A stretch of DNA of 64,000 nucleotides from positions 9,617 to 73,616 of the forward strand of contig JAQTRS010000002.1 in assembly GCA_028711705.1 (NCBI GenBank), written 5' to 3'. The position numbers were made by a program, and so were the translations under genes. How positions within the stretch are numbered: the stretch's first letter is position 1; each line of letters opens with the position of its first letter. Positions 4,304 through 49,346 of this stretch are shown in pieces. Source of the DNA: Candidatus Moraniibacteriota bacterium (GTDB taxonomy: Bacteria > Patescibacteriota > Minisyncoccia > Moranbacterales > UBA1568). The notes under the pieces were generated by a model, which did no database searches, was not told the origin of the DNA, and was given only the letters and a program-made list of their open reading frames with translations.

Positions 4304-7132
4304 CTAGATATACTTCCCAGTGAAGCTCTTCTTGCATTTCTTAAGTCCTGATGGGATGCCTGCGTAGACGATTTCTCCCCCGCCCTCGCCGCCCTCGGGT
4401 CCAAGGTCAATCACCCAGTCGGCGTGCTTGATCACATCGGTATTGTGCTCGACCACAACAATCGTATTTCCCTTATCGGCCAGCGCGTCCAAAACGATCA
4501 AGAGTTTTCGCGTATCCTCAAAGTGCAAGCCGATAGTCGGCTCATCAAGAATATAGAGCGTCTTACCGGTCGATTTCCGAGCCAATTCCGTCGCCAGTTT
4601 CACTCGCTGCGCTTCACCTCCCGAAAGGGCCGTGGCGCTCTGGCCGAGAATCAGATAGCCTAATCCCACTTCATCCAGCGCCCGCAGTTTCTCTTGAATC
4701 AGCGCATGGTCGCAGAAAAAGCTGCGCGCCTCGGAAACGGTCATATTGAGCACCTGGGATATATTCATCCCCCGATACTCTATAGCCAGTGTCTTTGCAT
4801 TGTAGCGCGTCCCTTGGCACTCCTCGCAGTCGACATAGACATCGGCCAGAAGATACATCTCCACCTTGCGCACCCCGCCACCCTGACAGACCTCGCAGCG
4901 GCCGCCGCGCATATTGAAACTGAAGTGGCTGGCATCATAGCCATCGCGCTTCGCCTCGGCCGTCTCGGCGAACAGATCGCGAATCGGAGAAAAAACCCCG
5001 GTATAGGTCGCGGCATTGGAACGCGGCGTGCGGCCGATCGGCGATTGGTTCACCGTAATCACCTTGTCGATATGCTGCAATCCGGTGATAGTCTTGTGCG
5101 TACCCACCCGCGTCTTGGCCTGATAGAAGTGTCTGGCCAAACTCTTGGAGAGGATGTCCTTAATCAGGGACGACTTTCCCGATCCGGACACGCCCGACAC
5201 CACCACGAATGCCTCCAGCGGTATCTGCACATCGACGTTTTTGAGATTATGCTCGGTGGCCCCGATAATCGATATGAATTTCTTCGCCTTGCGCGGCTTC
5301 CTGTTTTCCGGAGACACACTGATTTTTCCGGACAGGTATTGGCCCGTCAAACTCTTGGACTGCCACAGTTTCTTGGGCGTTCCCGAAAAGATCACCTCTC
5401 CCCCCTCGCGGCCCGCGCCCGGTCCCATATCCACGATCCAATCCGAAGCGGCCATGAGTGCCGGCTCATGTTCCACCACCACCAATGAATTCCCGTTTTC
5501 CCGAAGCGATTGGAGCGCGTGCACGAGCTTTTCCGTGTCGCGGCTATGCAGTCCGACGGACGGTTCGTCCAACACATACAAGATTCCCGTCAGATCCGAC
5601 TTCATCTGGATCGCCAAGCGGATACGCTGCGCTTCCCCGCCCGAAAGCGTTTCCGCACTACGGAAAATTTCAAGATACCCCAGTCCCACTTTTTCCACAG
5701 CCAAAAGACGCATATCCATTTCCTTGAGCAGGGTCGTCATAGCGTTTTTCAAATCTTTGGAAACTGTTTTGACCAGCATCTCCGAAAGACGCTGACGGAA
5801 AGCAGTCACACTGAGCGCCGCCATATCGTGGATAGAGCAATCCTCGATCAGAACCGAAAGGGATTCCTGTTTCAATCGCTTGCCTTGGCACGACGGACAG
5901 GTCCGCACGAGCATATACTTCTCGATCTCTTTGCGCAGGTGTTCCGATTTCGTCTCCTTGTGCTTCTTCTCCAATAACGGAACGATGCCGACAAACATCG
6001 CCTTCTGCTCCGCGGGCGAAAGCTTTTCTTTGCTTTTCAAAACCGCTTCTTCCCCATACAAAAGAATCTTCAGATGCTTGGCCGAGAATTTCTTGATCGG
6101 CGTCTTCATCGAAAAACCGCAACGTTCGGCAGCATCACGCAGGACGCTGAGCTGTCCTGTCTGCACCTGGCGCCCTTCGCTCGTCTTATTCCACGGACGT
6201 ATCGCTCCTTCAAGCAAAGATAGATTCTTGTTCGGGATGATAAGCTCCGGATCGAGCTCGAGCTTCACGCCCAGCCCCGAGCACGTTTCGCACGCACCTT
6301 CCGGACTGTTGAACGAAAAGATATTCGGCGCCAGTTCCGGCAGATGAACATCGCAGGCATGACAAACATATTCCTGACTGTACCAGTATTCTTCTTTTTC
6401 ATTCACCAAGAGGGTGAGCGCGCCATGCCCCAATTTGAAGGCCGTCTCGATAGAATCGAGCAGTCGCTCCTTGTCTGGTTTTTTCGTATCCAAAGTCAGC
6501 CGATCCACCGCTATCTCCATTTCGGAAAGCAGCATATCCGACGCATGCGGCAGCGCTTCGGAAATGAGCATAATCTGGCCATGGAAACGCACGCGGGCAT
6601 AGCCCCACTGCTCCACCTGTTTAAGCGCCTCCTTTTCCGTCTTTTTGAGCGTCTGCGGAAGCTTGGCAAGGAAAATGAAGAAGGTATTGTCCGGAAAATC
6701 CAAAATTTCCGCCAGGATTTCCTGACTGGTCTTTCGATGCAGCATACTGTGGCACTGCGGGCAATGCGGCACACCGGTCTTGGCATACAAAACACGGAGG
6801 TAATCATACACTTCGGTCAGGGTTCCCACGGTCGAACGCGGCGAACGGGAAATACTTTTCTGATCGATGGCGATCGCCGGACTTAAGTGATACATCGCGT
6901 CCACGTCGGGCTTGCCCAAAGATTCCATGAAGTTCCTCGCGTACGAGGAGAGCGACTCCATGTACCGCCTGTTGGATTCGGCATAGATCGTGTCGAAAGC
7001 CAAGGAAGATTTTCCCGAACCGGAAAGGCCGGTGATAACCACGAGCGAATCACGCGGGATTTCGACATCGATATTCTTGAGATTGTTGACACGGGCGCCC
7101 TTGATGATGATGTTATTATTTTTCTTTGCCAT
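4304..7132 (-). CDS. uvrA: Excinuclease ABC subunit A (UvrA, canonical class I, 942 aa)
   Basis: An N-terminal [14 protein letters not shown] motif and tandem ABC ATPase modules with zinc-finger Cys clusters. The length matches E. coli UvrA. Confidence 0.9.
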
Positions 7133-7283
7133 AATATAGTGAAGTGTGATAACTCTAAAACGATCGTCATACCCTTTGCCGTACCCCTCTCATATGACAA
7201 AGCAAGATTGGTATCAATCATACACCATTTTTTCCAGTTTGTAAAACCATTGCGCGCCCGTGTATGAAATGCATTTATTTAAA

Positions 7284-7321
7284 AAGCAAAAAACCCGCAT
7301 ACCGATACTATCGATATGCGG
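7284..7321 (-). terminator. Hairpin terminator downstream of the KP/zinc-ribbon gene
   Basis: An 8-bp stem CCCGCATA/TATGCGGG preceded on the plus strand by AAAAAA (T tract on the minus strand). Confidence 0.45.
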
Positions 7322-7334
7322 GCCATATGCCTTA

Positions 7335-8588
7335 TCAGGCATTTGCCTCTTTCTTCCTTCTTCCTTTCGTGTTCCTCGCGCATTCCGGGCAACCCCTCCC
7401 GGCAAGACGATTATGTCCCGTCGCCCGGTATTCGTGTCCGCATGATTTCACCGGGCATTTCCACCACAAAAGCCGAGTCGTCCCGGCAAACACCTCCCAA
7501 ACATGCTTCGTGTTCCTCCTAGCATACTCGCTTGCCAATGCGGGATGTGTGAAAGACAGATTGTTTGTGGGCGTCAGCACCCGATGCGAACATGCCGGGC
7601 AACCGCCGCCATCGAACCGCGTGACTCCCAACGATTCCCATTCATACTCGCAGGTCCTGCATTTCCACCAAAACCGCTTGCTCGGATGAGGGCACACCTC
7701 GGTGGCCTGCTTCTCATTCTTTTCGGAATACTCCGCTGCCAATTTTGGATACTTCGCGGCAAGATTATTGGTGGAGGTCACGACACGGAAAGCGCAAGCG
7801 GGGCATTTGGTCTTATCCTTCAATGGCCACTGATAGCGACATTCATTACATTCCTGCAATGTTGCCGATACCGGTGTCGCATTGACCTTGGGTTTTCGCC
7901 CTTCCTTAAGCTTTTGCTTATACTGAGCACTGGCCACCCGTTTAGACAGAGTCTTCAGGTCATCGCCATCCTTCACACTCAGGCCTGCTGCACGAAGCTT
8001 TTGTTTCGCAAGTTTCAGTTTCAACTTCAGCTTCGATCGAGGTTTGGGCCTGGGTCTGGGTTTGATCTTGGGCCTCAGTTTGGGTTTGGACACCGGCTTA
8101 GGTTTTCGCCCGGGCTTTTTCTTAGGCCTGGGTTCGGGTTTTGGCTTGGGTTCAGGTTTTACTCTGGGCTCCGGCGCCGATTTCGGTTTCTTCTCCTTTT
8201 TTTGCACCGGCTTGGGTTTTGGTTTCGGTTTGGGCTCAGGTTTTGGTTTCGTTTTCCGTTCTTTCTTCACTCGAGGTTTTGCGTCAGCGCTTTTAGTACG
8301 TTTCCTTTTTACGAAACGCTTCTTGGAAGCCCGCGCTCCCGACTTGGTATCGGACCAGGAAACACTATGCAATGCGGCATCGTACTGCGCCGAGCGGCCG
8401 CTTGAATCGAATGTTTTCAGATACTCCCGAAACTCCCGCACGCAAAACGTCTTCATACCCCGTTCATTTTCATACACGAAATCCGAAGCGCCGAGCAATT
8501 GTGCCATTTCCAATAATGGCACGCCCTCCTCGGTAAGAGCCCTGATTTCCATGTCCGTTTCTTGCAAAATACTCAATGGACGATCCAT
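7335..8588 (-). CDS. Hypothetical protein with three regions: an N-terminal HTH-like segment, a long K/P-rich (KPKPEPKP…) histone-H1/AlgP-like low-complexity region, and two tandem treble-clef zinc-ribbon modules of the DUF4379 type (CPAC…NNL…YP.LA.EY…WWKC..C)
   Basis: The ribbon module is duplicated ([26 protein letters not shown]…[11 protein letters not shown] and [26 protein letters not shown]…[13 protein letters not shown]). About 95 aa of KP repeats. Confidence 0.6.
8030..8270. repeat. Imperfect 6-nt periodic tandem repeat (GGNTTNGG units) that encodes the KP-repeat tract of the zinc-ribbon protein
   Basis: Read directly: ggtttgggcctgggtctgggtttgatcttgggcctcagtttgggtttgg…. Confidence 0.6.
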
Positions 8589-8680
8589 AGGATACGCTCC
8601 CCTTTTGTCAGTGATTGATTTGTTAAGATGCTTCGCTTTTCATCCGCATATGGCATACTCGGATGATAAGGGATAGTACC

Positions 8681-9928
8681 TTATTTCTTGCCCTTCGTCA
8701 ATAAAAAGCTCTTGGCGCGGCGCTTGCGGTGGAAGGTGATGGCGAAGCGGTGCGCCTCGCTGTTGGCAAGCAAAATGGCATCGTGATATTTTTTTGCGAA
8801 CTCCCCTTCTCCCAGGATGCTTTTGGGATTATGGTGCTCGTCCTTCACCACGCCCACCACAGGGATAGCCATAGCGAATTGCTCAAGCACCGCATGCGCG
8901 ACGTTGATCTGCAGATCAAAACCGTCCACCACGATCAGATCGGGCATCCGCCATTCCGAATGCTTCAATCGCCGCATCAGTATTTCCTCGAGGTTCTTCA
9001 CATCGTTGTTGCGTTCTATCGAAAGCTTGAACTGCCGATATTCCTTCTTATCCGGCACTCCGCTCTCCAGCACCGTCATCACGCCCACCACATCACGTCC
9101 CGAAAGATGCGCCACATCATAGGCTTCGATGCGGAACGAATCCGCCGCATAGCTTTCGATCGCATCCTTGCGCAAGAGCGACACGTCATAGATATGGCTC
9201 AAAGCGAACAATGTTTTTTTGAGAGCCTGCGCCTTCTCGAATTCCAATCGCTTGGCATATTCCCCCATCTCCTTCTTCAGATACCTGACGATCATCGATT
9301 TCTTCCCCTCGAAAAAAAGCTTGATATTGCGGATGGTCTTGGCATAGTCTTTCGCCGTCACCGCACCGTCGCACACGCCTGGGCACAAGCCGAGCTGAGC
9401 ATTGAAGCACGGTTTTCCCGAAAGCGGTTTGCACGTGTCGCGATACGGGAAAATCTTGCGCACGATTTTCAACGCTTCCTTCAAAGAGCCTCCCTGCGGG
9501 AACGGCCCGAAGGTATACCTGATCTTCATATCCTTCTTGGCATCCATATCCCTCCCCCGCATGAGCAGCACGCGCGGAAAGGCCTCTTTGGTGATGACGA
9601 CGGAGTAGAAACTCTTATCGTCCTTCTCATCGGTGTTATAGGGCGGCTGATGCTTCTTGATGAGCGACGCTTCCAAAAGCAGCGCCTCCAATACCGAATC
9701 GGTCGTCTGCCACTTCAGGTCCGTCACCTTCTCAAGCATCGCCACGATCTTTGGTCCGCGGGTCGAGGAGATATCGTGCGAGAAATAGCTCCGCACCCGG
9801 GAACGGAGCGAGGTCGCCTTACCGATATACAGAATGCTCTTTCCTTCCATAAAGAAATACACCCCCGGGGTATCGGGAAGCTCTTTTTGAAACACCATTT
9901 CTTTTGTGTTGCCAAACTTCATTGACAT
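8681..9928 (-). CDS. uvrC: Excinuclease ABC subunit C homologue (GIY-YIG plus RNase-H-like endonuclease domain). Short at 415 aa and lacks the C-terminal (HhH)2 region
   Basis: An N-terminal GIY-YIG motif (GVYFFMEGKSILYIGKATSLRSRV). The central endonuclease region DVAHLSGRDVVGVMTV…YRQFKL matches the UvrC/Cho family. Confidence 0.7.
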   Translation of the reverse strand: MSMKFGNTKEMVFQKELPDTPGVYFFMEGKSILYIGKATSLRSRVRSYFSHDISSTRGPKIVAMLEKVTDLKWQTTDSVLEALLLEASLIKKHQPPYNTDEKDDKSFYSVVITKEAFPRVLLMRGRDMDAKKDMKIRYTFGPFPQGGSLKEALKIVRKIFPYRDTCKPLSGKPCFNAQLGLCPGVCDGAVTAKDYAKTIRNIKLFFEGKKSMIVRYLKKEMGEYAKRLEFEKAQALKKTLFALSHIYDVSLLRKDAIESYAADSFRIEAYDVAHLSGRDVVGVMTVLESGVPDKKEYRQFKLSIERNNDVKNLEEILMRRLKHSEWRMPDLIVVDGFDLQINVAHAVLEQFAMAIPVVGVVKDEHHNPKSILGEGEFAKKYHDAILLANSEAHRFAITFHRKRRAKSFLLTKGKK

Positions 9929-10081
9929 AAATGCGGAAGTGTTATAGAATGCAGGAGCAGTTTTTTAACAACCCTGGTTTGATTAAAGTTAATTAAACCA
10001 CATTATAGGAGAAATACGCAATATGATGCCCATTCGTTTGCAACGAGAAATCCACGTCTTTATAATAAAAGGAAAGAAAAA

Positions 10082-10567
10082 ATGAGTACGATAATCGATT
10101 TTTGCAACAGGAACCGCGGGTCACACTGGTGGCTCATGATGATGTTCGCATCAATAATGATACCGTTGTTTGCTATATTCTACACGCTCTATCAATCCCT
10201 GGGGTTCACCCCTCAATTGATGGCGAAACTGATTATAGGATGCGACTACTCCGTCATCGAGTCCCTTTGGATCAATACCGGCCTCCAATGCGAAAACCTC
10301 TTTTCCATGGGAGCTATCATGAAAAACACGCCGTTCGCGCTGGATATCATGCTCCTTTATTGCATGACTTTCTCGACAACGTTTTTCCGTATTTGGAAGG
10401 GTCAGGTTTTCTTATCGGACCCGTCCACGGAATTCTGCGGTTGGAGCGTGCTTATCATGAGATTCAACTCCGAAGAAGAAGTTTCTTTTTCCACATTTCC
10501 TTTTATGAAAAAAGGCTACTGGCTCCAGCCGATTGAAAATTCAAAACAATTCGAGCTGGCAAAATAA
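10082..10567 (+). CDS. Hypothetical membrane protein (161 aa)
   Basis: Third-position C/G bias fits the genome, unlike the overlapping 10102-10536 frame. One clear transmembrane segment and an AGGAAAG SD. There is no homology clue. Confidence 0.35.
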   Translation: MSTIIDFCNRNRGSHWWLMMMFASIMIPLFAIFYTLYQSLGFTPQLMAKLIIGCDYSVIESLWINTGLQCENLFSMGAIMKNTPFALDIMLLYCMTFSTTFFRIWKGQVFLSDPSTEFCGWSVLIMRFNSEEEVSFSTFPFMKKGYWLQPIENSKQFELAK

Positions 10568-10585
10568 TATACACCTCTCAACAAT

Positions 10586-10630
10586 CCCGCTATCGCTTAA
10601 CGAGCGCTCTGGCGGGGTTTCTATTTCACA
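10586..10630 (+). terminator. Weak stem-loop (CCCGC…GCGGG) followed by a T-rich run after the 10082-10567 ORF
   Basis: A 5-bp GC stem with a 21-nt loop, then GTTTCTATTT. Confidence 0.25.
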
Positions 10631-10681
10631 AACAACGATTCCATCCCTTCAGAAAGCGACTTTCAAACAAAATATCATATA

Positions 10682-10710
10682 TTGACATATACGCTACACT
10701 ATGCTATAAT
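10682..10710 (+). promoter_or_regulatory. Consensus sigma70-type promoter TTGACA-17-TATAAT with an extended-10 TG, upstream of the small lipopeptide ORF
   Basis: TTGACA at 10682-10687, TATAAT at 10705-10710, and TGc immediately before the -10. Confidence 0.55.
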
Positions 10711-10786
10711 CGACCGTTGCTTTGAATGATCAAACAACACTCAATACCACTGGCTTTTTAACAAAAATTCTCAAAGGAGAATCGTC

Positions 10787-10918
10787 ATGCAAGAAGACAC
10801 CCGGATCAATCTCGGCATACTGATTTCCGTTATGCTGTTAATAGTATTCATTGCGATAGCATGCAATAAAACGGACAAAACTGAGCAAATCGCTCCGTCA
10901 ACGCTTTCTATCCGATAG
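10787..10918 (+). CDS. Small (43 aa) lipoprotein-like peptide (MQEDTRINLGILISVMLLIVFIAIA|CNKTDKTEQIAPSTLSIR)
   Basis: SD AAAGGAG. The N terminus is hydrophobic and ends in the lipobox-like AIAC. Hand-translated; under 60 aa, so absent from the ORF track. Confidence 0.4.
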   Translation: MQEDTRINLGILISVMLLIVFIAIACNKTDKTEQIAPSTLSIR

Positions 10919-10920
10919 CA

Positions 10921-10949
10921 TCGACAAACGGCTTTTCTTATGCTATATT
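10921..10949 (+). promoter_or_regulatory. Near-consensus promoter TCGACA-17-TATATT (extended-10 TGcTATATT) upstream of the second small ORF
   Basis: Read directly. The -10 context ATGCTATAwT is shared with the promoter at 10682. Confidence 0.45.
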
Positions 10950-10989
10950 CGAAAGGCTAGTAACTTAAAAACTCTGGAGGAAAAGAAAC

Positions 10990-11154
10990 ATGACTTCCGA
11001 AAACGTTGAAAAATGGCTCGAGACTATCGCCGCAAGAGAGGAAACTCAGACCTCGCCGAAAGTGAGACCATCATCACCGCAAGCACTGGAAATCCTTGAT
11101 GGAGCCGATGATCTATATCATTGCCTCGCTGATCAAGATCCGATTGCTCAATAA
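10990..11154 (+). CDS. Small hypothetical protein (54 aa, MTSENVEKWLETIAAREETQ…)
   Basis: SD GGAGG 8 nt upstream. Its N terminus is paralogous to the next ORF (MT-x-E-x3-KW-x-E-x-I). Confidence 0.4.
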   Translation: MTSENVEKWLETIAAREETQTSPKVRPSSPQALEILDGADDLYHCLADQDPIAQ

Positions 11155-11166
11155 TAGGAGAAGAAT

Positions 11167-11343
11167 ATGACTCCCGAAGCACACCGCAAATGGCGGGAAG
11201 ACATTGAAAAAATTCCAATATCTGAGACTCGCGAGATTTTGCTTCGCCATCATAGGCGGATCATTCCGGTTCTCAAAGAACCGATTCGTTTTACAAGTCA
11301 TGCCGAGTTGACACAAACGCCAGAAAAAGAACATATGGACTGA
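11167..11343 (+). CDS. Small hypothetical protein (58 aa, MTPEAHRKWREDIEKIPISETRE…)
   Basis: SD AGGAGA. It is paralogous to the 10990-11154 ORF and is followed by a terminator. Confidence 0.4.
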   Translation: MTPEAHRKWREDIEKIPISETREILLRHHRRIIPVLKEPIRFTSHAELTQTPEKEHMD

Positions 11344-11370
11344 AACATAGTCCCTGGCACCATACATCAG

Positions 11371-11408
11371 AAACAACGCCCGATAGCAATCCTGTCGGGC
11401 GGTTTTTT
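11371..11408. terminator. Rho-independent terminator (CGCCCGA-11nt-TCGGGCG then TTTTTT) that ends the small-ORF cluster. The uvrA2 stop lies at its T-tract edge
   Basis: A 7-bp GC-rich stem with a 6-T tract on the plus strand and A-rich sequence on the other side. Confidence 0.6.
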
Positions 11409-13956
11409 ATATACTCAGCACCCGTTTCAGGTATTCGCCGGTGTGTGAGCCTTTGGCATTAGCAACCTGTTCGGGCGTTCCCTTGGCGACCACTTTGCCG
11501 CCGCCTGATCCGCCTTCGGGTCCGATATCGATAAGATAGTCGGAACTTTTGATCACATCCATATTGTGCTCGATGAGAATCACCGAATTGCCCTTGTCCA
11601 CCAAACGCTGCAAAATCTCGATCAATTTTTTCACGTCCTCGTAGTGCAGGCCGATGGTCGGTTCATCCAAAAGATAAATCGTGCGCTGCAAATGCGGGCG
11701 ATAGAGTTCCGAAGATATCTTGATACGCTGCGCTTCCCCGCCCGAAAGCGTCGTGGCGGATTGACCAAGCTCCAGGTATTCCAAACCGACATCCCGAAGC
11801 GTCTTGAGCCGATCGGCGATGGCCGGGATATCCTTGAAGAATTCCGAGGCTTCCTCGACCGTCATCTTGAGCACATCGTAGATACTCTTTTTCTTATACT
11901 TCACCTCGAGCGTCTCCTTGGTGAAACGCTTGCCATCGCAAACATCGCACGGCACATAGACCGTCGGCAGAAAGTGCATCTCCACCGCGATCTCGCCATT
12001 CCCCTGACAGGTCTCGCAGCGCCCTCCCGGAACATTGAACGAGAATCGCCCAACCTTCCACCCGCGCACGCGAGCCTCGGCCGTCGAGGCATACAAATCG
12101 CGCACATGCGACCACATGCCGGTATAGGTTGCCGGATTGGAGCGTGGCGTGCGTCCGATCGGCGACTGATCGATCATCACGGCCCGGGTCAGGTATTCCG
12201 TCCCGCTCAGGCTCTTGCAATTGATGGCCTTATTATCTTTGTAGCGGCGATCGAAGCGCGCCTGCAGATTCTTGTGCACGATTTCATACAGAAATGACGA
12301 TTTCCCCGATCCGGACACGCCCGTCACGGTGATCAAACGCCCAAGCGGGATATCCACGTCCAAGTTCCGGATATTGAACACGCTGCCCCCGCGGACCTTG
12401 AGCGCGCCTTTTTCTTTGGTACGACGCACGGTCGGAACCTGGATTTTTTTCTCACCGCGAAGATACGAGAGCGTTACCGATCCCGATGCATTCGTCTTGG
12501 CCGTCAGCAATTGCTCCAGATCCCCCGACACCACGATATTGCCGCCATGCACGCCGGCCCCCGGTCCGATGTCGACCAGGTAGTCCGAGGCATAGATGGT
12601 GTCCTCGTCGTGCTCCACCACGATAATCGTGTTGCCCAGCTCGCGCAGACGTTTGAGAGTCGCAATAAGACGGTCATTGTCGCGCTGGTGCAGACCGATG
12701 GTCGGTTCATCCAATACATACAAGGCACCCACCAGCTGCGAACCGAGCTGCGACGCCAAACGGATGCGCTGCGCCTCCCCGCCCGAAAGGGTGTTGGCGC
12801 GCCGATCGAGCGAAAGGTAGTCCAAGCCGACATTCAACAGAAACTGCAGGCGGCTTTCGATTTCCTTCACCACCACGGCGGAAATTTTCTCCTCGCGCTC
12901 GGTCAATTCGAGCGTGGAAATGAACTCATAGGCGTCCCGGATGGTCGAGGCGGTATAGTCGATGATATTCTTGTCCCCCACCAAGACGAACAGAGCCTCC
13001 TCACGCAAACGGTGGCCATGGCAATCCTCGCAGACTTCCTCGCCGAAAAAGTGCTTGGTTCCCAAACCGTTGCATGTCGGGCAGGCGCCGTAGGGAGAAT
13101 TGAAACTGAACAGTCGCGGCTCCACCTCCGGATAGGAAAACCCATCATAGGGGCAGGAGAACTTCGACGACATCACGCGCTCTTCCCCGTCGAGGACGAT
13201 ACGGATCAACCCTTCGGTTTCCTCGAGCGCCTTGTCTATCGCCTCGTTCAATCGCTCCTGCGATCCGAACGCGTCGCTTTGAAATTCATCGAGCACGATC
13301 TCATCCACCAGCATATCGATATCATGCTTCTTGTTCTTGGACAGCACAACCTGATCGCGCAGGCTGCTCCGCACGCCGTCGATACGAGCCTCCACATATC
13401 CCTTGCTCAAGAAATCATACAGCATCTGATAATACTCCCCCTTGCGTCCGCGCACGATCGGCGCCCAGACTTGCAGCGTCGCAGGGACCTTGCTTTTCGC
13501 TTCGGGTTTTTCCTTGCGGTCGCTCACCATATCCACGATGAAATTCACCATCTCTTCGCTCGAGAGTTTCTTGATTTCCCGATTGCACACCAGACAATGC
13601 GGCCGCCCGATACGGGCATAGAGCACGCGCAAATAGTCATAGATTTCGGTGATGGTCGCCACCGTCGAGCGCGGATTGGACGAGCGGGATTTCTGGTCGA
13701 TGGAAATCGCAGGCGACAGCCCGGCAATCTCGTCCACATCCGGCTTCTGGAACTGATGCAGAAATTGCCGCGCATAGGTCGAGAGTGATTCCACGTAGCG
13801 GCGCTGCCCCTCGGCGAAAATGGTATCGAACGCCAAAGAGGACTTGCCCGACCCAGACAAACCCGTAAACACGATCATCTTGTTGCGAGGCATTTCGACC
13901 GTGATATTCTTGAGATTGTGCGTCCGAGCGCCCCGGACGATGATCGTATCCTGCAT
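11407..13956 (-). CDS. Second UvrA-family ABC ATPase (849 aa), about 93 aa shorter than the neighbouring UvrA. Candidate class II / UvrA2-like paralogue
   Basis: The N terminus [28 protein letters not shown] and tandem ABC modules resemble UvrA. The shorter length suggests the UvrB-binding/insertion domains are reduced. Confidence 0.8.
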   Translation of the reverse strand: MQDTIIVRGARTHNLKNITVEMPRNKMIVFTGLSGSGKSSLAFDTIFAEGQRRYVESLSTYARQFLHQFQKPDVDEIAGLSPAISIDQKSRSSNPRSTVATITEIYDYLRVLYARIGRPHCLVCNREIKKLSSEEMVNFIVDMVSDRKEKPEAKSKVPATLQVWAPIVRGRKGEYYQMLYDFLSKGYVEARIDGVRSSLRDQVVLSKNKKHDIDMLVDEIVLDEFQSDAFGSQERLNEAIDKALEETEGLIRIVLDGEERVMSSKFSCPYDGFSYPEVEPRLFSFNSPYGACPTCNGLGTKHFFGEEVCEDCHGHRLREEALFVLVGDKNIIDYTASTIRDAYEFISTLELTEREEKISAVVVKEIESRLQFLLNVGLDYLSLDRRANTLSGGEAQRIRLASQLGSQLVGALYVLDEPTIGLHQRDNDRLIATLKRLRELGNTIIVVEHDEDTIYASDYLVDIGPGAGVHGGNIVVSGDLEQLLTAKTNASGSVTLSYLRGEKKIQVPTVRRTKEKGALKVRGGSVFNIRNLDVDIPLGRLITVTGVSGSGKSSFLYEIVHKNLQARFDRRYKDNKAINCKSLSGTEYLTRAVMIDQSPIGRTPRSNPATYTGMWSHVRDLYASTAEARVRGWKVGRFSFNVPGGRCETCQGNGEIAVEMHFLPTVYVPCDVCDGKRFTKETLEVKYKKKSIYDVLKMTVEEASEFFKDIPAIADRLKTLRDVGLEYLELGQSATTLSGGEAQRIKISSELYRPHLQRTIYLLDEPTIGLHYEDVKKLIEILQRLVDKGNSVILIEHNMDVIKSSDYLIDIGPEGGSGGGKVVAKGTPEQVANAKGSHTGEYLKRVLSI

Positions 13957-13960
13957 AGGA

Positions 13961-13988
13961 TTGACTTTTAACCCAAATCTGCTATATT
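13961..13988 (+). promoter_or_regulatory. Promoter TTGACT-16-TATATT for small paralogue gene A
   Basis: Read directly; the arrangement matches the promoter at 14542-14570. Confidence 0.5.
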
Positions 13989-13992
13989 GAAG

Positions 13993-14033
13993 CTTCTTGG
14001 AAGTCTAGCAGATTCCCTGCAAAGATTCAAGAA
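13993..14033 (+). promoter_or_regulatory. Conserved leader element: inverted repeat TTCTTGgA-N24-TTCAAGAA at or just after the predicted TSS. It is duplicated (about 85% identity over about 65 nt) upstream of paralogue B
   Basis: Alignment of 13990-14063 with 14573-14645 made by eye. Confidence 0.5.
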
Positions 14034-14061
14034 CAGCAACCTTAACAAAGAGGACCCGGTC

Positions 14062-14463
14062 ATGACAATAATACGTTTCACGCTCGCTTCCGTTTTCTTG
14101 GATGCGATGGATCCGATGAACCCATCATCCGCCCACGAATTCCTTGCAAAAGTTCCCTTCTACGAAAAAATTATCGACACCTTGGTGATGATGACCCGAG
14201 GAGGGCACAAAGAAGTGCTCGGTGCCCTCTCGAACGCACCTTCCGAGGAAGAAGGGTTTACGGAAGTTATCTTCAATCAGACCGTACTGATACGCATCGA
14301 TCGTTATGGCGATGATCATCGTGTCACGATCACGACGCAGCATGATACTGAAACTGTCGCAAGCTTCTTCCGTCGATGCGGTATCGAGGCAAGCATACCT
14401 GAGGTTATGCCGAAAGACATCCCGCCCTGCACGGTCTTCGTTTCCCAAAACGACGCCGACTGA
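14062..14463 (+). CDS. Hypothetical small protein, paralogue A (133 aa from ATG 14062)
   Basis: The C-terminal region …DDHRVTITTQHDTETVASFF resembles …DMWRVTVFTDNEITHIVTQL of paralogue B. SD AAAGAGGA. Confidence 0.5.
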   Translation: MTIIRFTLASVFLDAMDPMNPSSAHEFLAKVPFYEKIIDTLVMMTRGGHKEVLGALSNAPSEEEGFTEVIFNQTVLIRIDRYGDDHRVTITTQHDTETVASFFRRCGIEASIPEVMPKDIPPCTVFVSQNDAD

Positions 14464-14485
14464 ATACGCTCGGCAAAACCGCCAC

Positions 14486-14530
14486 AAAAACCGCCGCCGC
14501 TTCCTGTCGCATCAGGAGGGGCGGTTTTTT
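14486..14530 (+). terminator. Stem-loop plus TTTTTT after paralogue A
   Basis: AACCGCC…GGCGGTTTTTT. Confidence 0.45.
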
Positions 14531-14541
14531 CATGGGAAGCA

Positions 14542-14570
14542 TTGACTTTCAAAGCGGGATTTGCTACACT
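14542..14570 (+). promoter_or_regulatory. Promoter TTGACT-17-TACACT for paralogue B, followed by the inverted-repeat leader TTCTTGAA-N24-TTCAAGAA (14576-14615)
   Basis: Read directly. Confidence 0.5.
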
Positions 14571-14642
14571 GACACTTCTTGAAAGTCTCGAGGATTCCCC
14601 GCAAAGATTCAAGAAATTTCCTTAACAAGGAGGATCGCCATC

Positions 14643-15038
14643 ATGTTGACCGCTATAGCATTCCCGATTCATAAAGACTCCGACTTCGAACAAATCTCGC
14701 GCGCATCACTCAATCAAGAAACCGATGAAAGCACGCTGTTTTACAGGAAATTATTCGGGGCCCTGTCTAAAATAGTAGACGTATCCGATGCTCGACTCTA
14801 TGAAGCGATCACGGCATTGCAAACGGACCAAGCGCTCCAGGAATATCCTTTCAAACAAGGGAATCGCATGGATATCGGCCCACGAGAAGAGGATATGTGG
14901 CGCGTCACCGTTTTCACCGATAACGAAATCACGCACATAGTCACCCAGCTCGTGCGTCACGACATAGTAGTCAAACTGACCGATGAAATACCCGACGAAG
15001 TGCCGCTTAAATCAACAGTTATCATTTTCTTCGGTTGA
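14643..15038 (+). CDS. Hypothetical small protein, paralogue B (131 aa)
   Basis: SD AAGGAGGA. Paralogous to 14062-14463. Confidence 0.5.
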   Translation: MLTAIAFPIHKDSDFEQISRASLNQETDESTLFYRKLFGALSKIVDVSDARLYEAITALQTDQALQEYPFKQGNRMDIGPREEDMWRVTVFTDNEITHIVTQLVRHDIVVKLTDEIPDEVPLKSTVIIFFG

Positions 15039-15061: not shown

Positions 15062-15105
15062 AAAAAAACCGCTACCTTTCTAACAAGAAATGTAGCGGTT
15101 TTTTA
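15062..15105. terminator. Bidirectional terminator (AAAAAAACCGCTAC…GTAGCGGTTTTTT) between convergent genes
   Basis: A 9-bp stem with an A tract upstream and a T tract downstream. Confidence 0.6.
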
Positions 15106-15125
15106 TGCGCGCAATGACCGGCATA

Positions 15126-16319
15126 TTACTGATGCCTCACGTCAAATAATGAAACCGGGATATCAATGTCCTTCGCCTTGACCATGAAATCGACGAAAAC
15201 GGATCGATTCAGATCGCTTGCTTGATCAGTATCGCTCCAGTACGACCAATCGGTCGCCTCCGCAAGCTGACTTTTATTTTCAGCGAATATATTCAACCAT
15301 ACGGAATAGCCTTTTTTCTGGGCCGATATGACCTCCGAGAGAATGCCGTTCAGAACATCTTTGCGTTTTCCGGGATCGACCGCTATCGTCATCTTTTCAT
15401 CCAATGTGTATTTCGAAGAGAAGCTTCCCGTATTAAACCAGATATCTTTCACTTCAAGCGTATCGGCGGCTTCCATAGCCAGGCGGGCATTCAGGTATTC
15501 ACGCGCATCAAACAGACCCACCCGTTCGGAACCGGCAGGCGGCGCCCATGGAAACCCCTGGATACCGAAACTGTCGACCAAGCCCTTCTTGATGCCGGAT
15601 ACATACGGAACCAGGCTGACATACTCGCCGCTCTCCCAGTTGAAGTCCTCATTGTCATATGTGGCCGAATTAAGCAGTACGCTCCCCTTCGCCTGAGGGA
15701 ATTCTTTTTTCAATGTGCCCAGGTATTTGTTCACGATAACCGAAAAATCTTTCGGGGTGGCGTTCTCATGGTTCCAATACGGCAAGTTCGCCTCGGGAAA
15801 CGGTACCCAGATACCCATCATATCATCCGTGACACCCTCAGCCTTGATGGCCTTGAAATAAGCTGTGATCCACTTATCGTAGAACCCGGTTCCGAATTCC
15901 TTGAAATCGATCAGTCCCCACTCATTCACGGGCTCGACGACCACGATCGGCGTCACATGGAACCGAGAGAATTCCTTCAGCGTCTCCGCCATTTTTTTCG
16001 CGGACTCGACGGCTCCATTCTTATCTTTCGGCATATCGGTAAAGAGCATGATCCTGTCGGTCACGAAAGAATCGCACACCGCCTGATACTCCGACAGCTT
16101 CAGAAGATGCGGGTCGGATGCCGACTCCAGATCGGTGATCTTCTCCCTATCCGAACATCGGCCCGCCGTCAAAGCGACCTGTTCGGAAACGGTCTTTTTC
16201 GGCAGCCTGATCACACTCCTGACATCGCGATCCGTCATCGAATGAAACACCAGCGTGAATGCGAAAACGGACAGGGCAAGGAATATGGATGAATAGGAAA
16301 GAATGCTTTTTACACTCAT
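15126..16319 (-). CDS. Membrane-anchored conserved protein, paralogue of 24368-25633 (motifs VPFPEAN, FGIQGFPW, WLNIFAENK…TDWSYW). Possibly a glycoside-hydrolase-like TIM-barrel enzyme for polysaccharide processing
   Basis: Clear paralogy with the 24368 gene. An N-terminal transmembrane segment. The start was chosen at the internal Met MSVKSIL; the ORF-track start at 16385 would overlap the GT2 gene. Confidence 0.55.
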   Translation of the reverse strand: MSVKSILSYSSIFLALSVFAFTLVFHSMTDRDVRSVIRLPKKTVSEQVALTAGRCSDREKITDLESASDPHLLKLSEYQAVCDSFVTDRIMLFTDMPKDKNGAVESAKKMAETLKEFSRFHVTPIVVVEPVNEWGLIDFKEFGTGFYDKWITAYFKAIKAEGVTDDMMGIWVPFPEANLPYWNHENATPKDFSVIVNKYLGTLKKEFPQAKGSVLLNSATYDNEDFNWESGEYVSLVPYVSGIKKGLVDSFGIQGFPWAPPAGSERVGLFDAREYLNARLAMEAADTLEVKDIWFNTGSFSSKYTLDEKMTIAVDPGKRKDVLNGILSEVISAQKKGYSVWLNIFAENKSQLAEATDWSYWSDTDQASDLNRSVFVDFMVKAKDIDIPVSLFDVRHQ

Positions 16320-16342
16320 ACCGTTGTCGTACGTTAATAATA

Positions 16343-17617
16343 TTAAATCGTGTCGGTCACTCCGGTCCGCTTCCATTTCTGCCACTCGACATCATCGCCG
16401 CGCAGCACCATCTTGAAACTCTTCAGCAATACCAGATATTCGACCCACACCAGGAAATAGAACAACGGCCACGTGAACGGAAACAGCAGAATCCTCCGCA
16501 AGGAGACGCCGTCGTGAGCGAAAAAAGCGTTGACCAGATAGATCACGAACACGAACAATGCGCCCAAAGTGATGGACAGGTAGTCCCCGGAAATGAAACT
16601 GTATGAGGCGAGAAACGTTATCGAGATGGGCTCGAAAAACAGCTGGATTTCCGCCAAAATAGAGAACGGCAGGATAAACCATGCCAAAAATATATTATGA
16701 TTCCTCCAATCCGTGGAAAAGAACATCCGGCGATATTTGAGGAACGTGTCCATGCGGCCTTTTTTCCAGCGCAAACGCTGGCTTATCAGACCGACTACAG
16801 TCGAAGCGCCCTCGGTATAGCAGATGACATTCTCCGCATAGGCGGAACGCAATCCGTTGAAGCGTATGCGCATCGACATCTCGATATCCTCTGTCTTATT
16901 GCTCGTATCGAAAAGGCCGAGCCTATCGAACACCGTCGCCTTGCGGAACGCGGCGCAAGCGCCTCCGAAAATATATTCCGCCCCCAACACGGAATGGGCA
17001 CGCTTGAAATAGAATCCGAAAAGATACTCGAGCCTTTGCGTGTAGCCGACCATGCTATGGTTCTTGGCGACACGGACATTCCCCACGACGGCATCGATCT
17101 TATCGTCCTCGAAATACTCGACCAGATTCGCTATGGCCCGCCTTTCGAGCGCCGAATCCGCATCGACCGTGACGATGATTTCTCCGGAAACTTTTCCGAT
17201 ACCGAAGTTGAGGGCTTCTCCCTTGCCTCCGTTTTCCTTATAGAAGTACTTCACCTTCGTGCTGTCCAGGTGCCTATTTTCAAGGTTCTTCCTGATGAAC
17301 TCCTTGACCACGGCATCGGAATCATCGGTCGATCCATCGTTTACGACGATAATCTCGATATTCTTATACGAGTTGCGCAGTATCGATTTGATAGTCTTGA
17401 GTATACCTACCCGTTCATTCCAGGCAGGGACGATGACGGAAACGAGGGGAAGGTATGCTCTTCCATGAATCTTACGTAGCTTTTTCAGCCGGATCCTGCG
17501 CATCGATTCCCTCATGGGATACAGCGGTGTTAAGAGCAAAAAGAGGTAATACTTCACCAACATCGCCGTAGCGAAAAAGAAAGCTATATTCTTGAATAGG
17601 TTGAAATACTCGTTCAT
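16343..17617 (-). CDS. Processive family-2 glycosyltransferase of the PgaC/IcaA/NodC type (N-terminal transmembrane segments, DxD, QRLRW)
   Basis: Motifs VIVPAWNE, VNDGSTD, VTVDADS and QRLRWKKG, plus a C-terminal transmembrane bundle. Confidence 0.8.
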   Translation of the reverse strand: MNEYFNLFKNIAFFFATAMLVKYYLFLLLTPLYPMRESMRRIRLKKLRKIHGRAYLPLVSVIVPAWNERVGILKTIKSILRNSYKNIEIIVVNDGSTDDSDAVVKEFIRKNLENRHLDSTKVKYFYKENGGKGEALNFGIGKVSGEIIVTVDADSALERRAIANLVEYFEDDKIDAVVGNVRVAKNHSMVGYTQRLEYLFGFYFKRAHSVLGAEYIFGGACAAFRKATVFDRLGLFDTSNKTEDIEMSMRIRFNGLRSAYAENVICYTEGASTVVGLISQRLRWKKGRMDTFLKYRRMFFSTDWRNHNIFLAWFILPFSILAEIQLFFEPISITFLASYSFISGDYLSITLGALFVFVIYLVNAFFAHDGVSLRRILLFPFTWPLFYFLVWVEYLVLLKSFKMVLRGDDVEWQKWKRTGVTDTI

Positions 17618-45692: not shown

Positions 45693-48600
45693 TCACATAA
45701 GCTCGAATTTCTCTTTCAGGATGATGATTTCGTCGCGCAAAATGGCGGCTGTCTCGAAATCCAGCTCCTTCACGGCGAGTTTCATCTGCTTTTCCTTGAG
45801 CTTGATCAGCTTCTCTGGATTCTTCACAAACACCTGCTCGTCGATCAGGATATTCGCCGACACCGCCTTCTGATGCTCGCTCTCGAAGGCCTCGGTGATA
45901 TCGTGGATTTTCTTGCTGATGGTCTGAGGGGTGATGCCATGCGCCTCATTATACGCGATCTGGATGGCACGCCGACGATCGGTCTCGCTTATCGCACGCT
46001 CCAAAGACCCGGTCATCGTGTCCGCATAGACATTGACCCGGCCGAAAACATTGCGCGCCGCCCGCCCGATGATCTGGATGAGCGACGTTTCCGATCGCAA
46101 AAATCCCTCCTTATCCGCATCCAAGATGCCGATGAAAGTCACCTCCGGCAGATCCAATCCTTCCCGCAACAGATTCACGCCCACCAAGCAATCGAATTCC
46201 CCTTTGCGGAACGACGTGAGTATCCTGATGCGGTCTATCGTTTTGACATCGCTGTGCAGATATTCCGCCTTGACTTTCTGTTCTTTCAAATACGTCGTCA
46301 GATCCTCGGCCATTTTTTTGGTCAAAGTCGTCGCCAGCACCCGCCCGCCTTTTTGTATATCCTTCTTCGCCTCGCCGATAAAATGCCAGATCTGCCCGGG
46401 ATAGTTCCCTGCTTCACGCACGGGCCTCACCGTCACTTCCGGATCGATCAGTCCCGTCGGCCGGATGACCTGCTGCACGACCTGCTCGCTCACCTCGCGC
46501 TCATAGACGCTCGGCGTCGCGGACACATAGATCGTCTGACCGACCCGCTGCTCGAATTCCTCATAACGCATCGGGCGATTATCCAAGGCGCTCGGCAGAC
46601 GGAAACCGAAATCGATCAGCGTTCCCTTGCGGGCCTGATCGCCCGCATACATCGCGCGCAACTGCGGCAGCGTCACGTGCGATTCATCGATCAGTGTCAA
46701 AAAATCCGGCGCGCCATCCGCTTTTTTCGGGAAGTATTCAAGCAGGCTGTCCGGCGCCTCCCCGGGTTTCTTGCCCGAAAAATGCCTCGAGTAATTCTCG
46801 ATACCGCTGCAATAGCCGATTTCCTCTATCATCGCCAGATCATACTGCGTCCGCCGCTTCAGGCGATCCGCTTCCAAAAGCTTTCCCTGTTTATTGAGTT
46901 CCGCAAGCTGCTCCTCCAATTCCGCGCGTATCGTCTGCAGCGCACGTAGTTGCTGTTCCTTGTCCGACACGAAGTGCTTGGCCGGAAACAGGAACATCGA
47001 ATCCATCTCGCCTGTAATCTTCTGCGATACCGGATCGATACCGGTGATGGAGCGCACCTCGCCACCCGAGATATCCAACGAATACATCACGCGCTCCTGC
47101 ACCGGCATGATGTCCACCCGATTGCCCAGGCTGCGAAAAGTTCCAGGCGTCAAATCCGCATTAGTGCGCTCGAAGAAAATCCCGATCAAGCGGCGCAAAA
47201 ATTCCGGACGCAAAATCCGGTCGCCCTTCTTCAGGATAACATGCTCCTTCTGATACTCCTCCGGGCTTCCCAAACCGTAGATGCACGACACCGATGCCAC
47301 GATAATCACATCGCGACGCGTTAGCAGCGACTGGGTCGAGGCATGGCGCAACCGGTCGATCTCCTCGTTGATCTGTGCATCCTTTTCGATATACGTATCC
47401 GTGATGGGCATATATGCCTCTGGTTGATAGTAGTCATAATAGGAGACGAAATAGTGGACGGCATTATCGGGAAAAAATTCCTGAAACTCCTGCGCGAGCT
47501 GGGCCGCCAAGGTCTTGTTATGCGCTATAACGAGGGTCGGCTGTTGGATATTTTGTATGACCTGAGCCATAGTGAAGGTATTGTGAACGAATATCCCTCC
47601 GAACCCAGCTAAAAAAGTTTCATTCTGATCGATTGAAAAATCATACACATATTTTTCGCCTGAAATCATTTCTATTTTTTCGATAGGCGTCCAATATGAG
47701 TTCAAAAGATACGCCTGTTTTTCGATAGCGGAAACATCTGCTAAACCGATTTTTTTCGCTGCTTTAAATAAAGTTTTTATGATTCCCTCGAAACAATTTC
47801 TGGAAGGCAGCCTTTTGCCACTCTCAATCAAACCCATATGAGATCGTCCAGAAATAAAATCTTTCTGCCATAGGCCTAGTTTCTGCCTTATATCCTTAAT
47901 CTGCTTCCCATCGATAGGGATAAGATTGACATTCGTGTTACCAAAAGGTGCTATCGTCGCCCTCAAAGAGTCATTTTTTCTTGTAATTGAAAAACCTATA
48001 TTTTCCTGAAAAATCTCCAGATATTCTTTCCCAGAGATAAAGACTTTCCAGCAATCGGTTCGGTTATCCTGATTCGGAATCTTAACACTCCTTTTTTTCA
48101 TCCTTGCCACAATTCCAAAACGCGACAGGGCATAGAGAAGATCCGATGCCAATCCCTTGCTTACCGTTACACAGGTGATAGCGCCGCTATCGATCCCGCC
48201 ATCTCCCGAGAAATACGCCTTCAAAATATGCCTGAGATGGTTATTCGATAACTGCGCCCAGAACGAAGGAAGCCGCTTCATTCGGGAGGTGTTACCGCAC
48301 CAATATTTAAGCCACTCCGTCCATACCGTAGAAGAGACCTGGTAGTCATACGTTCCCGGACGTAAACGATACCGCAACCCAAGATGGACGCAAATGGAAG
48401 AAAAGTCATCAACAGCCTCTCGATCTCCGGATGAGAACATAAAAAAACCGTCCGCTCCATGTCCTTCGGCTATATAGTAACCGATAAGCCTCATCAATTC
48501 CTCGGTAACCGGAATTTCAAGCGTATGTTCATATCCCCGGCTTACCACCCCAAAAACAGCCTGTTGAGAGAGCATCGGGACTGCTGTAATAATTTTTTTA

Positions 48601-49346
48601 TACAGCGAAAAAGACACTCTCTCTTGATCATGCAGAATCCGATAGGCTTTTTGATATGGCAAAATCGACTGCAATAGCTCTTTATGCTCCGCCCAAGCAG
48701 AGGCAAAATTCGGCATACGAACAAACAATTTCAAACCAACATCCGCAACATCATCCGCTAAAGATATCGACTGTAACGTTTTTCTCGGTTCATCCAAACT
48801 CAATGGGACAGGTAAAAAATCGCCCACTCGTAATTCATCGGTTGAACAAAGAACTGTTTTCCCTTTGCGCACCACATAAAAATTGTGATCCTGAGTCACT
48901 GTTACTTCCCTTCCACAGCTTGTCCTTATGACAGAAAGCTCTTTGGGTGACGCATGTCGTGTGAATTGATTTATAGGCTTCCATGAAACCATTTTTGTCT
49001 GAGAATCGATACTATATGCCTCATACTCTCGGTATCGCGAAGGTAAATCATTCACTTCAAGCAACTCCGTATCATCAATATTTTTTATTTTTCCCGGAAA
49101 GATACTCAGGAGTTCGTCTATAAGACTTCCTATACTTACACATGACACCTTGCCATTCCTTCTTATCAACACAGGCGTGGCACCAGTTACACTTTTCCCT
49201 GTACCCGTGGCTCCCAAGAGGGTCTGTTTTTTCATGCCGCCCCGAATACCCGAAACCAGCGCTTCGATCGCCTGCGGTTGGTCCCCTGCTGGCTGATACG
49301 AACTTCTGAGAGTGAAAGGGTTGCTGCGGGGTGTTGACATTTCCAT
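45693..49346 (-). CDS. uvrB: Excinuclease ABC subunit B (UvrB) precursor interrupted by an intein (extein about 679 aa, intein 538 aa)
   Basis: Extein: …LLGATGTGK | … | [28 protein letters not shown]…, with UvrB helicase motifs and the C-terminal UvrB/UvrC interaction helix. The intein starts with Ser and ends in …FVHN before Thr. Confidence 0.85.
   Translation of the reverse strand: [1217 protein letters not shown]
47580..49193 (-). mobile_element. Intein (S52…N589 of the precursor) with an embedded LAGLIDADG homing-endonuclease domain, inserted in the UvrB Walker-A P-loop
   Basis: Block A [18 protein letters not shown]-like motifs [11 protein letters not shown] and [11 protein letters not shown]. 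Block G FVHN then T. Boundaries were verified codon by codon on the DNA. Confidence 0.8.

Follow-up and report, generated by a model that had tools for sequence, protein, structure and literature searches.

A palindromic promoter-leader cassette ahead of tandem orphan genes in Candidatus Moranbacteria: evidence for selection and a possible role as a transcribed operator

A 64-kb stretch of a Candidatus Moranbacteria metagenome-assembled genome (Patescibacteria, the candidate phyla radiation, CPR), hereafter the window, contains two tandem genes, A and B, each headed by a cassette of ~105 bp made up of a promoter, a leader of ~66 nucleotides (nt) that includes a palindrome, and a Shine-Dalgarno sequence (SD). 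The genes are located on a contig of 210,826 bp, and the same DNA was present in the Logan assembly of run SRR22315508. A preliminary description of the locus had assigned to each gene a promoter, a leader and a terminator of its own, and all of these were found where it had placed them; A and B are separate transcription units, each also with its own SD. The features of the two units are as follows.

13961-13988, + strand: promoter of gene A (-35 TTGACT at 13961-13966, 16-nt spacer, TG at 13980-13981, -10 TATATT at 13983-13988)
13994-14033, + strand: palindrome of gene A (left arm TTCTTGGA at 13994-14001, centre GATTCCC at 14011-14017, right arm TTCAAGAA at 14026-14033)
14040-14054, + strand: conserved block CCTTAACAA (14040-14048) and SD AAGAGGA (14048-14054) of gene A
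14062-14463, + strand: gene A (PHT88_01765, MDD5083650.1), an orphan encoding 133 amino acids (aa), isoelectric point (pI) 4.8
14486-14531, + strand: intrinsic terminator of gene A (z-score -3.1)
14542-14570, + strand: promoter of gene B (-35 TTGACT at 14542-14547, 17-nt spacer, TG at 14562-14563, -10 TACACT at 14565-14570)
14576-14615, + strand: palindrome of gene B (left arm TTCTTGAA at 14576-14583, centre GGATTCCC at 14592-14599, right arm TTCAAGAA at 14608-14615)
14620-14634, + strand: conserved block CCTTAACAA (14620-14628) and SD AAGGAGGA (14627-14634) of gene B
14643-15038, + strand: gene B (PHT88_01770, MDD5083651.1), an orphan encoding 131 aa, pI 4.7, with an orthologue, P0003, that is 45% identical
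15063-15106, + strand: intrinsic, bidirectional terminator of gene B (z-score -6.2), which also serves the convergent gene at 15126-16385 on the - strand

Both promoters were of the sigma-70 type with an extended -10 element (TGC-TATATT in A, TGC-TACACT in B), a feature on which the preliminary description had not remarked and which recurs at other genes of the window. Given the usual distance between a -10 box and the start site, transcripts are predicted to begin with the outermost bases of the left arm, near 13995 for gene A and near 14577 for gene B. The inverted repeat had been reported as TTCTTGAA-N24-TTCAAGAA; this is exact in B, whereas the left arm of A, TTCTTGGA, departs from it once, at a position that still forms a G-U pair in RNA. 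Two further conserved elements, the central GGATYCCC and a TTAACAA block, were absent from that description. It had also proposed a search for further copies, and the arm pattern TTCTTG-N20-32-CAAGAA occurred at only two sites in the 64 kb, one in each leader (0.13 expected; none of 100 shuffles reached two). No degenerate extra copies of the palindrome were found in the intergenic DNA of the window, nor was any segment resembling a small RNA and complementary to the leaders found in the window. A longer, TTG-started open reading frame (ORF) from 13987 was also listed for gene A and would run through its leader, but was dropped because of in-frame stops in the other three leaders known (see below). 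Stops in three of four leaders indicate that the leaders are non-coding and, together with the well-spaced SDs, back the ATG starts of A and B. In the window as a whole the SD is a minority feature, with GGAG, GAGG or AGGA located 3-18 nt from the start codon in 13 of 45 long ORFs, and A and B are atypical of it in having ~66-nt leaders and strong SDs.

The search for further family members covered ~15 billion proteins. Word-indexed searches (5.8 billion clusters) with A, B and a three-sequence profile as queries returned only A, B and P0003, and an exhaustive HMMER search of 1.84 billion representatives recovered these three and no others. P0003, hereafter B', is the orthologue of B and is encoded on a 1557-bp contig (L082) of a different organism from the same sequencing run. 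The layout of this contig matches that of the window: a partial paralogue with its own terminator (positions 2-370, truncated by the contig end) is followed by A' and then by B', so that the array in the second organism has at least three members. A' encodes an A-like protein of 136 aa (E = 0.001 to A, ~22-30% identical), and both complete genes have the cassette on their 5' side and their own terminators on their 3' side. The cassette could therefore be compared in four sequences (A, B, A' and B') from two organisms and one sample.

Between A and B, the promoter-leader region had a mean column identity of 84% in one alignment and matched in 81/112 columns (72%) of the four-way alignment, with 35 of 40 palindrome positions identical (88%). 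Across organisms, B and B' agreed at 36/40 palindrome positions and 28/32 promoter positions; the palindrome of A' matched the other three at 29-30 of 40. The coding sequences of B and B' were 57%, 76% and 49% identical at codon positions one, two and three, a pattern that indicates genuine coding sequence under purifying selection, and only 9 of 21 four-fold degenerate sites agreed. Conservation of the palindrome at 36/40 against 9/21 at four-fold sites points to purifying selection and not to a recent duplication, the explanation that the preliminary description had named as fatal to its view of a functional duplicated module; the cassette is kept ahead of both the 45%-identical B' and A'. 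Identity between leaders was 0.79 for B-B', 0.75 for A-B, 0.66 for A'-B' and 0.60 for A-A', and since the leaders of B and B' are closer than those of A' and B', which share a genome, gene conversion does not explain the identity.

Conservation was organised in blocks: ATTGAC, TGCTAnAnTGA, TTCTTG, GAT-CCC, ATTCAAGAA, TTAACAA and the SD were invariant or nearly so, with TTGAC and TGCTAnAnT invariant in all four modules, whereas the promoter spacer and the linker ahead of TTAACAA were scrambled. The order common to the four cassettes was TTGAC, a 16- or 17-nt spacer, TGC-TAnAnT, 5 nt, TTCTTG, 11 nt, GATYCCC, 6 or 7 nt, ATTCAAGAA, 5-10 variable nt, YTTAACAA, SD and ATG, and the distances from the -10 box to the arm (5 nt) and from the left arm to GAT (11 nt) were fixed in all four. 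The palindrome thus has the consensus TTCTTGA-N10-GGATYCCC-N6/7-ATTCAAGAA and is predicted to span approximately +1 to +40. Each arm has the form TTCnnGAA, with 32 bp (31 bp in A'), or about three helical turns, from one arm centre to the other. These alignments leave little doubt that the cassette is a cis-regulatory module under selection, common to paralogues and orthologues. Co-regulation of A and B, as had been proposed, may follow from this.

A strict leader pattern gave no match in the collections of genome contigs or metagenome contigs. A looser pattern gave 19 metagenome and two viral matches, all inside coding sequence; having neither promoter nor TTAACAA block, these are chance matches. 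Neither an A/B homologue nor the leader was present at 80 uvrA loci, drawn from other phyla as well as from further Patescibacteria, so the element is not a general uvrA-linked operator. In the literature, the arm sequences led only to primers and to sequences without relation to the element, and a search for transcription start sites and SD usage in Patescibacteria yielded no paper naming the group.

The modules contain a second inverted repeat, formed by a segment S1 and a segment S2 that overlaps the left arm; S2 also takes part in the pairing of the arms, where its partner is S3 in the right arm.

13963-13971, + strand: S1 of A, GACTTTTAA, complementary to S2 of A, TTGGAAGTC, at 13997-14005
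14544-14552, + strand: S1 of B, GACTTTCAA, a perfect 9-bp complement of S2 of B, TTGAAAGTC, at 14579-14587

S1 lies inside and just after the -35 box, so that the -10 box and the predicted +1 fall between S1 and S2. The complementarity is kept in the four cassettes, with 34 of 36 cells pairing, two adjacent changes in A' that affect both sides and two changes of the G-U type in A. RNAalifold chose S1:S2 as the consensus helix of the whole module, with covariation at the observed level in 33 of 500 shuffles. S1:S2 and S2:S3 share columns 44-48 of the alignment and are mutually exclusive. As S1 lies upstream of the predicted start, it is unusable in any model that involves the mRNA only. The feature mildly favours a reading at the level of DNA, and no model fits it well.

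Gene A is divergent from a gene for a UvrA paralogue. Only 5 bp separate the ATG of that gene from the -35 box of gene A, and its promoter must therefore be located inside the A module.

11407-13956, - strand: ORF for a UvrA paralogue of 849 aa (Pfam ABC_tran and UvrA_inter)
14030-14002, - strand: candidate promoter of the uvrA paralogue (-35 TTGAAT at 14030-14025, 17-nt spacer, TG at 14010-14009, -10 TAGACT at 14007-14002)

The minus strand of palindrome A reads TTGAAT-N14-TGC-TAGACT, again with an extended -10 element, in a context (AATCTGCTA) that duplicates the sense -10 region. The substitutions that distinguish the interior of A from those of B and B' are exactly those that create this antisense promoter, and B, B' and A' have no good antisense -10 box. 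The antisense promoter in leader A, the sole plausible candidate, most likely drives the uvrA paralogue. The sense and antisense promoters would then stand face to face with start sites near 13995, and any factor bound over palindrome A would affect both.

The preliminary description had left the protein family unrecognised, and A and B had no match in Pfam, NCBIfam, PADLOC, PHROG or the sequences of the PDB. It had noted similar C-terminal halves; the similarity is real, and proved both weaker and broader than this, with 22% identity over residues 33-121 (E = 0.003) and N-terminal residues that are also alike (M-T-I-F). Identity between paralogues was 16-25%, only three positions, all hydrophobic, were invariant in the five family proteins, and the pI was 4.7-4.9 in three of the five. 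AlphaFold models, obtained with a three-sequence alignment, had predicted local distance difference test (pLDDT) values of 84 and 83 and predicted template modelling (pTM) scores of 0.81 and 0.77. They showed no helix-turn-helix and the same order of secondary-structure elements, which supports paralogy, although both models derive from one shared alignment. Foldseek against the PDB and BFVD gave no neighbour below E = 0.017 for either model; the weak matches that recurred, to roadblock/LC7/MglB-like folds (E 0.017-0.04, template modelling scores 0.2-0.36, root-mean-square deviation 7-13 Å), were rejected, the element order being different. A and B look like acidic alpha/beta, non-enzymatic, fast-evolving binding proteins. 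They are unlikely to bind nucleic acids or to be the regulator of the cassette, and autoregulation by A or B was rejected in view of their acidity and the lack of a DNA-binding motif.

In the surrounding DNA, positions 4304-13956 hold a nucleotide-excision-repair cluster encoding a UvrA of 942 aa, a DUF4379 treble-clef zinc-finger protein, a short (415 aa) UvrC-like protein and the 849-aa UvrA paralogue. For the latter, UvrA proteins 63-73% identical were found in other Patescibacteria, and there was no match to PF17755 (UvrA_DNA-bind) at E up to 1e-6. The segment 10682-11343 comprises a near-consensus promoter (TTGACA-N17, TGC-TATAAT), a ~75-nt leader behind it and then three tiny ORFs (~50-60 aa), all of them SD-led. 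The convergent neighbour downstream of B belongs to a large envelope and polysaccharide cluster (15126-37161) with three GT2 glycosyltransferases, two polysaccharide deacetylases, GH18 and GH81 proteins, a weakly sortase-like protein, an HlyD-like protein and several proteins without a family. Elsewhere in the window, uvrB (45693-49346, - strand) encodes 1217 aa, enlarged by an intein with a LAGLIDADG homing-endonuclease domain, and a PIN-PhoH fusion of 490 aa (846-2318, - strand) adjoins tsaE and a gene for a DHH-family protein.

Whether the palindrome is recognised as DNA or as RNA was approached through its pattern of substitution and its folding. The arms, S2:S3, paired in 32 of 32 cells with no compensatory pair among the eight arm pairs, and shuffles were uninformative; the only two changes in the arms were from A to G, both in the left arm and both compatible with G-U pairing in the sense RNA. 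The four leaders folded alike as an imperfect hairpin of 40 nt, with different interior pairs in A'. Folding z-scores of the leaders were -0.5 to -2.4 and the antisense strand folded about equally well; with the arms held fixed, the self-complementarity of the interior was not significantly above that of shuffles on either strand (z -0.5 to -2.0). The SD was predicted to be mostly paired, with a probability of being unpaired of 0.06-0.42 across the four leaders; calculated over the same span as for other genes, this was 0.22-0.26, and the median of 13 SD-led genes was 0.24. Rfam gave no match at gathering score in the 64 kb and none in either leader at E up to 10, the weak matches being confined to the terminator of B or the inside of gene A. 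Four sequences, three of them with a nearly identical interior, cannot decide between an operator and a hairpin on sequence grounds.

The explanation we tentatively favour, at a probability of roughly 0.4, is that the palindrome is a transcribed DNA operator bound across the start site by an oligomeric, sequence-specific repressor, with the 5' stem-loop of the mRNA secondary or a by-product. The arms are invariant despite saturated neutral sites, which argues for sequence-specific recognition and is likelier for a site in duplex DNA than for an RNA stem. The fixed spacings of 5 and 11 nt, an interior no more self-complementary than shuffles, the conserved complementarity to S1 ahead of the predicted start and the location of the candidate uvrA promoter within palindrome A also speak for a reading at the DNA level. 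The repressor would bind the two TTCnnGAA boxes and the central GGATYCCC over the start site, the S1 half-site in the -35 region might extend the operator, and binding would switch all family members together. At copy A, the uvrA paralogue would be co-repressed through the shared DNA, which hints at a stress or DNA-damage regulon. Because such an operator is transcribed, a stem-loop would come to lie at the extreme 5' end of the mRNA, where it could add an effect on stability like that of CIRCE.

Several observations weigh against a DNA operator. No gene for a regulator was seen among the ORFs of the window that were scanned, and no further copies of the site occur in the window, so that no wider regulon is visible. 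The gap of 24-26 bp between half-sites is odd for a simple dimer, the layout of S1, S2 and S3 does not fit simple dimer geometry, and the distance from the centre to the right arm differs by 1 bp in A'. The G-U pairs retained by both arm substitutions are what an RNA helix predicts; together with the 1-nt indel they point the other way, towards RNA, and the overall hairpin is kept in four leaders with different interior pairs in A'. The evidence itself consists of four sequences from two organisms in one sample, with nearly equal interiors in A, B and B'.

A purely RNA-based explanation is somewhat less likely, and it survives best among the alternatives. Here a 5'-terminal stem-loop would shield the transcript from RNases that depend on the 5' end, or would bind an RNA-binding protein, and a conserved apical loop GGAUUCCC with an upstream CCUU/CUUC tract would tune access to the SD. 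The hairpin begins 5 nt past the -10 box in all four modules, that is at about +1; the substitutions in its fully paired arms are compatible with pairing on the sense strand only; and its shape is shared by A', which has CUG/CAG in place of UCU/AGA and tolerates a deletion of 1 nt. An apical UUCCC is complementary to the SD in 4/4, in keeping with the predicted pairing of the SD, and the combination of a long leader and a strong SD is unusual for this genome segment. Against this, the arms lack compensatory changes where neutral sites are saturated, folding is weak and about as good in antisense, pairing of the SD does not depart from the median of the window's other SD-led genes, Rfam offers no match, and the conserved complementarity to the untranscribed S1 is left unexplained.

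Two further explanations make use of S1. One, which we regard as improbable, is a new, lineage-specific kind of control element in Patescibacteria, a switch in which S2 would pair with either S1 or S3. The promoter DNA would thereby be linked to the mRNA 5' end and to the antisense uvrA promoter, and the orphan family under its control may comprise arms-race or host-interaction proteins of an episymbiont. The other, a still fainter prospect, is a three-segment RNA switch: in RNA that reads through from an upstream terminator, S1 would pair with S2 in place of S2:S3, and read-through RNA would differ in translation or decay from RNA that starts at the gene's own promoter, insulating the units of the array. 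The mutual exclusion of the two helices suits such a switch, as do the choice of S1:S2 by RNAalifold, its two compensatory pairs and two G-U changes, and the fact that S1:S2 is weakest (7/9 Watson-Crick pairs) in A, which has no co-directional gene upstream. However, S1 shares bases with a promoter whose -35 and -10 elements are invariant and well spaced, termination upstream is strong (z -3.1 to -3.8), and read-through RNAs folded singly still preferred S2:S3, with accessibility of the SD barely altered. The covariation, moreover, was reached by 33/500 shuffles, and correction of a quasipalindrome by template switching could produce a paired change without selection. That the palindrome is incidental and the leaders are alike through recent duplication or gene conversion is very improbable: tandem paralogues with ~105-bp homologous tracts could recombine, and the leader of A resembles that of B more than that of A', the gene in the same position, but the cassette is kept across two organisms with four-fold sites near saturation and B proteins only 45% identical, the leaders of A' and B' are less alike than those of B and B', and conservation is in blocks with scrambled spacers, whereas conversion would copy a whole tract.

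Among known systems, CIRCE, the operator of HrcA, is a perfect inverted repeat located between a sigma-70-type promoter and the start codon of several transcription units (groE, dnaK); it has the sequence TTAGCACTC-N9-GAGTGCTAA and, being transcribed, can serve as an operator in the DNA and also as a 5'-end element in the mRNA. The cassette resembles it in having a transcribed repeat between promoter and start codon that is common to several units, and differs in its sequence (TTCTTGA-N25/26-TCAAGAA with a conserved centre, against N9 in CIRCE), in heading genes that do not encode chaperones and in the absence of HrcA among the window ORFs scanned. The 40-bp palindromic BirA operator bioO lies at the face-to-face promoters of bioA and bioBFCD. 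Like bioO, palindrome A is ~40 bp long, has its weightiest segments on the outside and lies over two face-to-face divergent promoters, that of gene A and the predicted one of the uvrA paralogue; unlike bioO, its sequence is unrelated, no biotin genes are involved and the palindrome also precedes three genes that have no divergent partner. HAIR, the HspR site (CTTGAGT-N7-ACTCAAG), shares CTTGA/TCAAG cores in the half-sites, and A' reads CTTGAGC; the spacer, however, is 25-27 bp against 7, the half-site is matched only in part and chaperone genes are absent.

Stabilising stem-loops at mRNA 5' termini have a hairpin that starts within ~4 nt of the 5' end. The leaders of E. coli ompA and of B. subtilis aprE and ermC are like the cassette in having a stem-loop a few nt from the 5' end, predicted in our case; they are defined by position and stability, whereas here the arms are invariant in sequence and the centre and flanks are conserved. 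ROSE and fourU thermometers of tandem small heat-shock genes share conserved leaders for each gene and a pyrimidine tract able to pair with the SD, but there was no Rfam match to ROSE, the proteins are not Hsp20 and pairing of the SD is no stronger than in genes of the window, which also led us to reject SD sequestration and an RNA thermometer. The vlp, vsp and mpl genes of Mycoplasma are likewise tandem, fast-diverging paralogues of a reduced genome with a conserved 5' region each; in the present case there is no signal peptide, lipobox, homopolymer tract or recombinase.

Other candidates were rejected. An invertible promoter would require repeats enclosing at least ~100 bp, against only 24-26 bp here, and there was no recombinase among the window ORFs scanned. 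In an integron attC array the module would not stand 5' of the first gene and be absent after the last, with promoters and terminators for each gene; RYYYAAC...GTTRRRY cores are lacking and the neighbour is a uvrA paralogue and not an integrase. The anatomy does not fit a type I toxin-antitoxin system, and the Gram-positive LexA box GAAC-N4-GTTC is absent from the intergenic region. By analogy, the cassette probably works most like CIRCE/HrcA and bioO, and it belongs to neither, nor to the HAIR, ROSE, attC or inverton systems. The motif is new, though its kind is familiar, and it is attached to a new orphan family.

With the cassette known from two organisms in one sample, general importance is unlikely. 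To our knowledge, gene regulation in Patescibacteria is almost unknown, and the group cannot be grown alone. The present case provides a compact selected module of ~105 bp that is experimentally portable, has its palindrome at the predicted start, heads very fast-evolving genes and overlaps the predicted promoter of a DNA-repair gene, together with an orphan family whose fold is confidently predicted yet unmatched. A factor that binds the cassette, if found, would define one of the first regulons of Patescibacteria and provide a handle on this orphan family.

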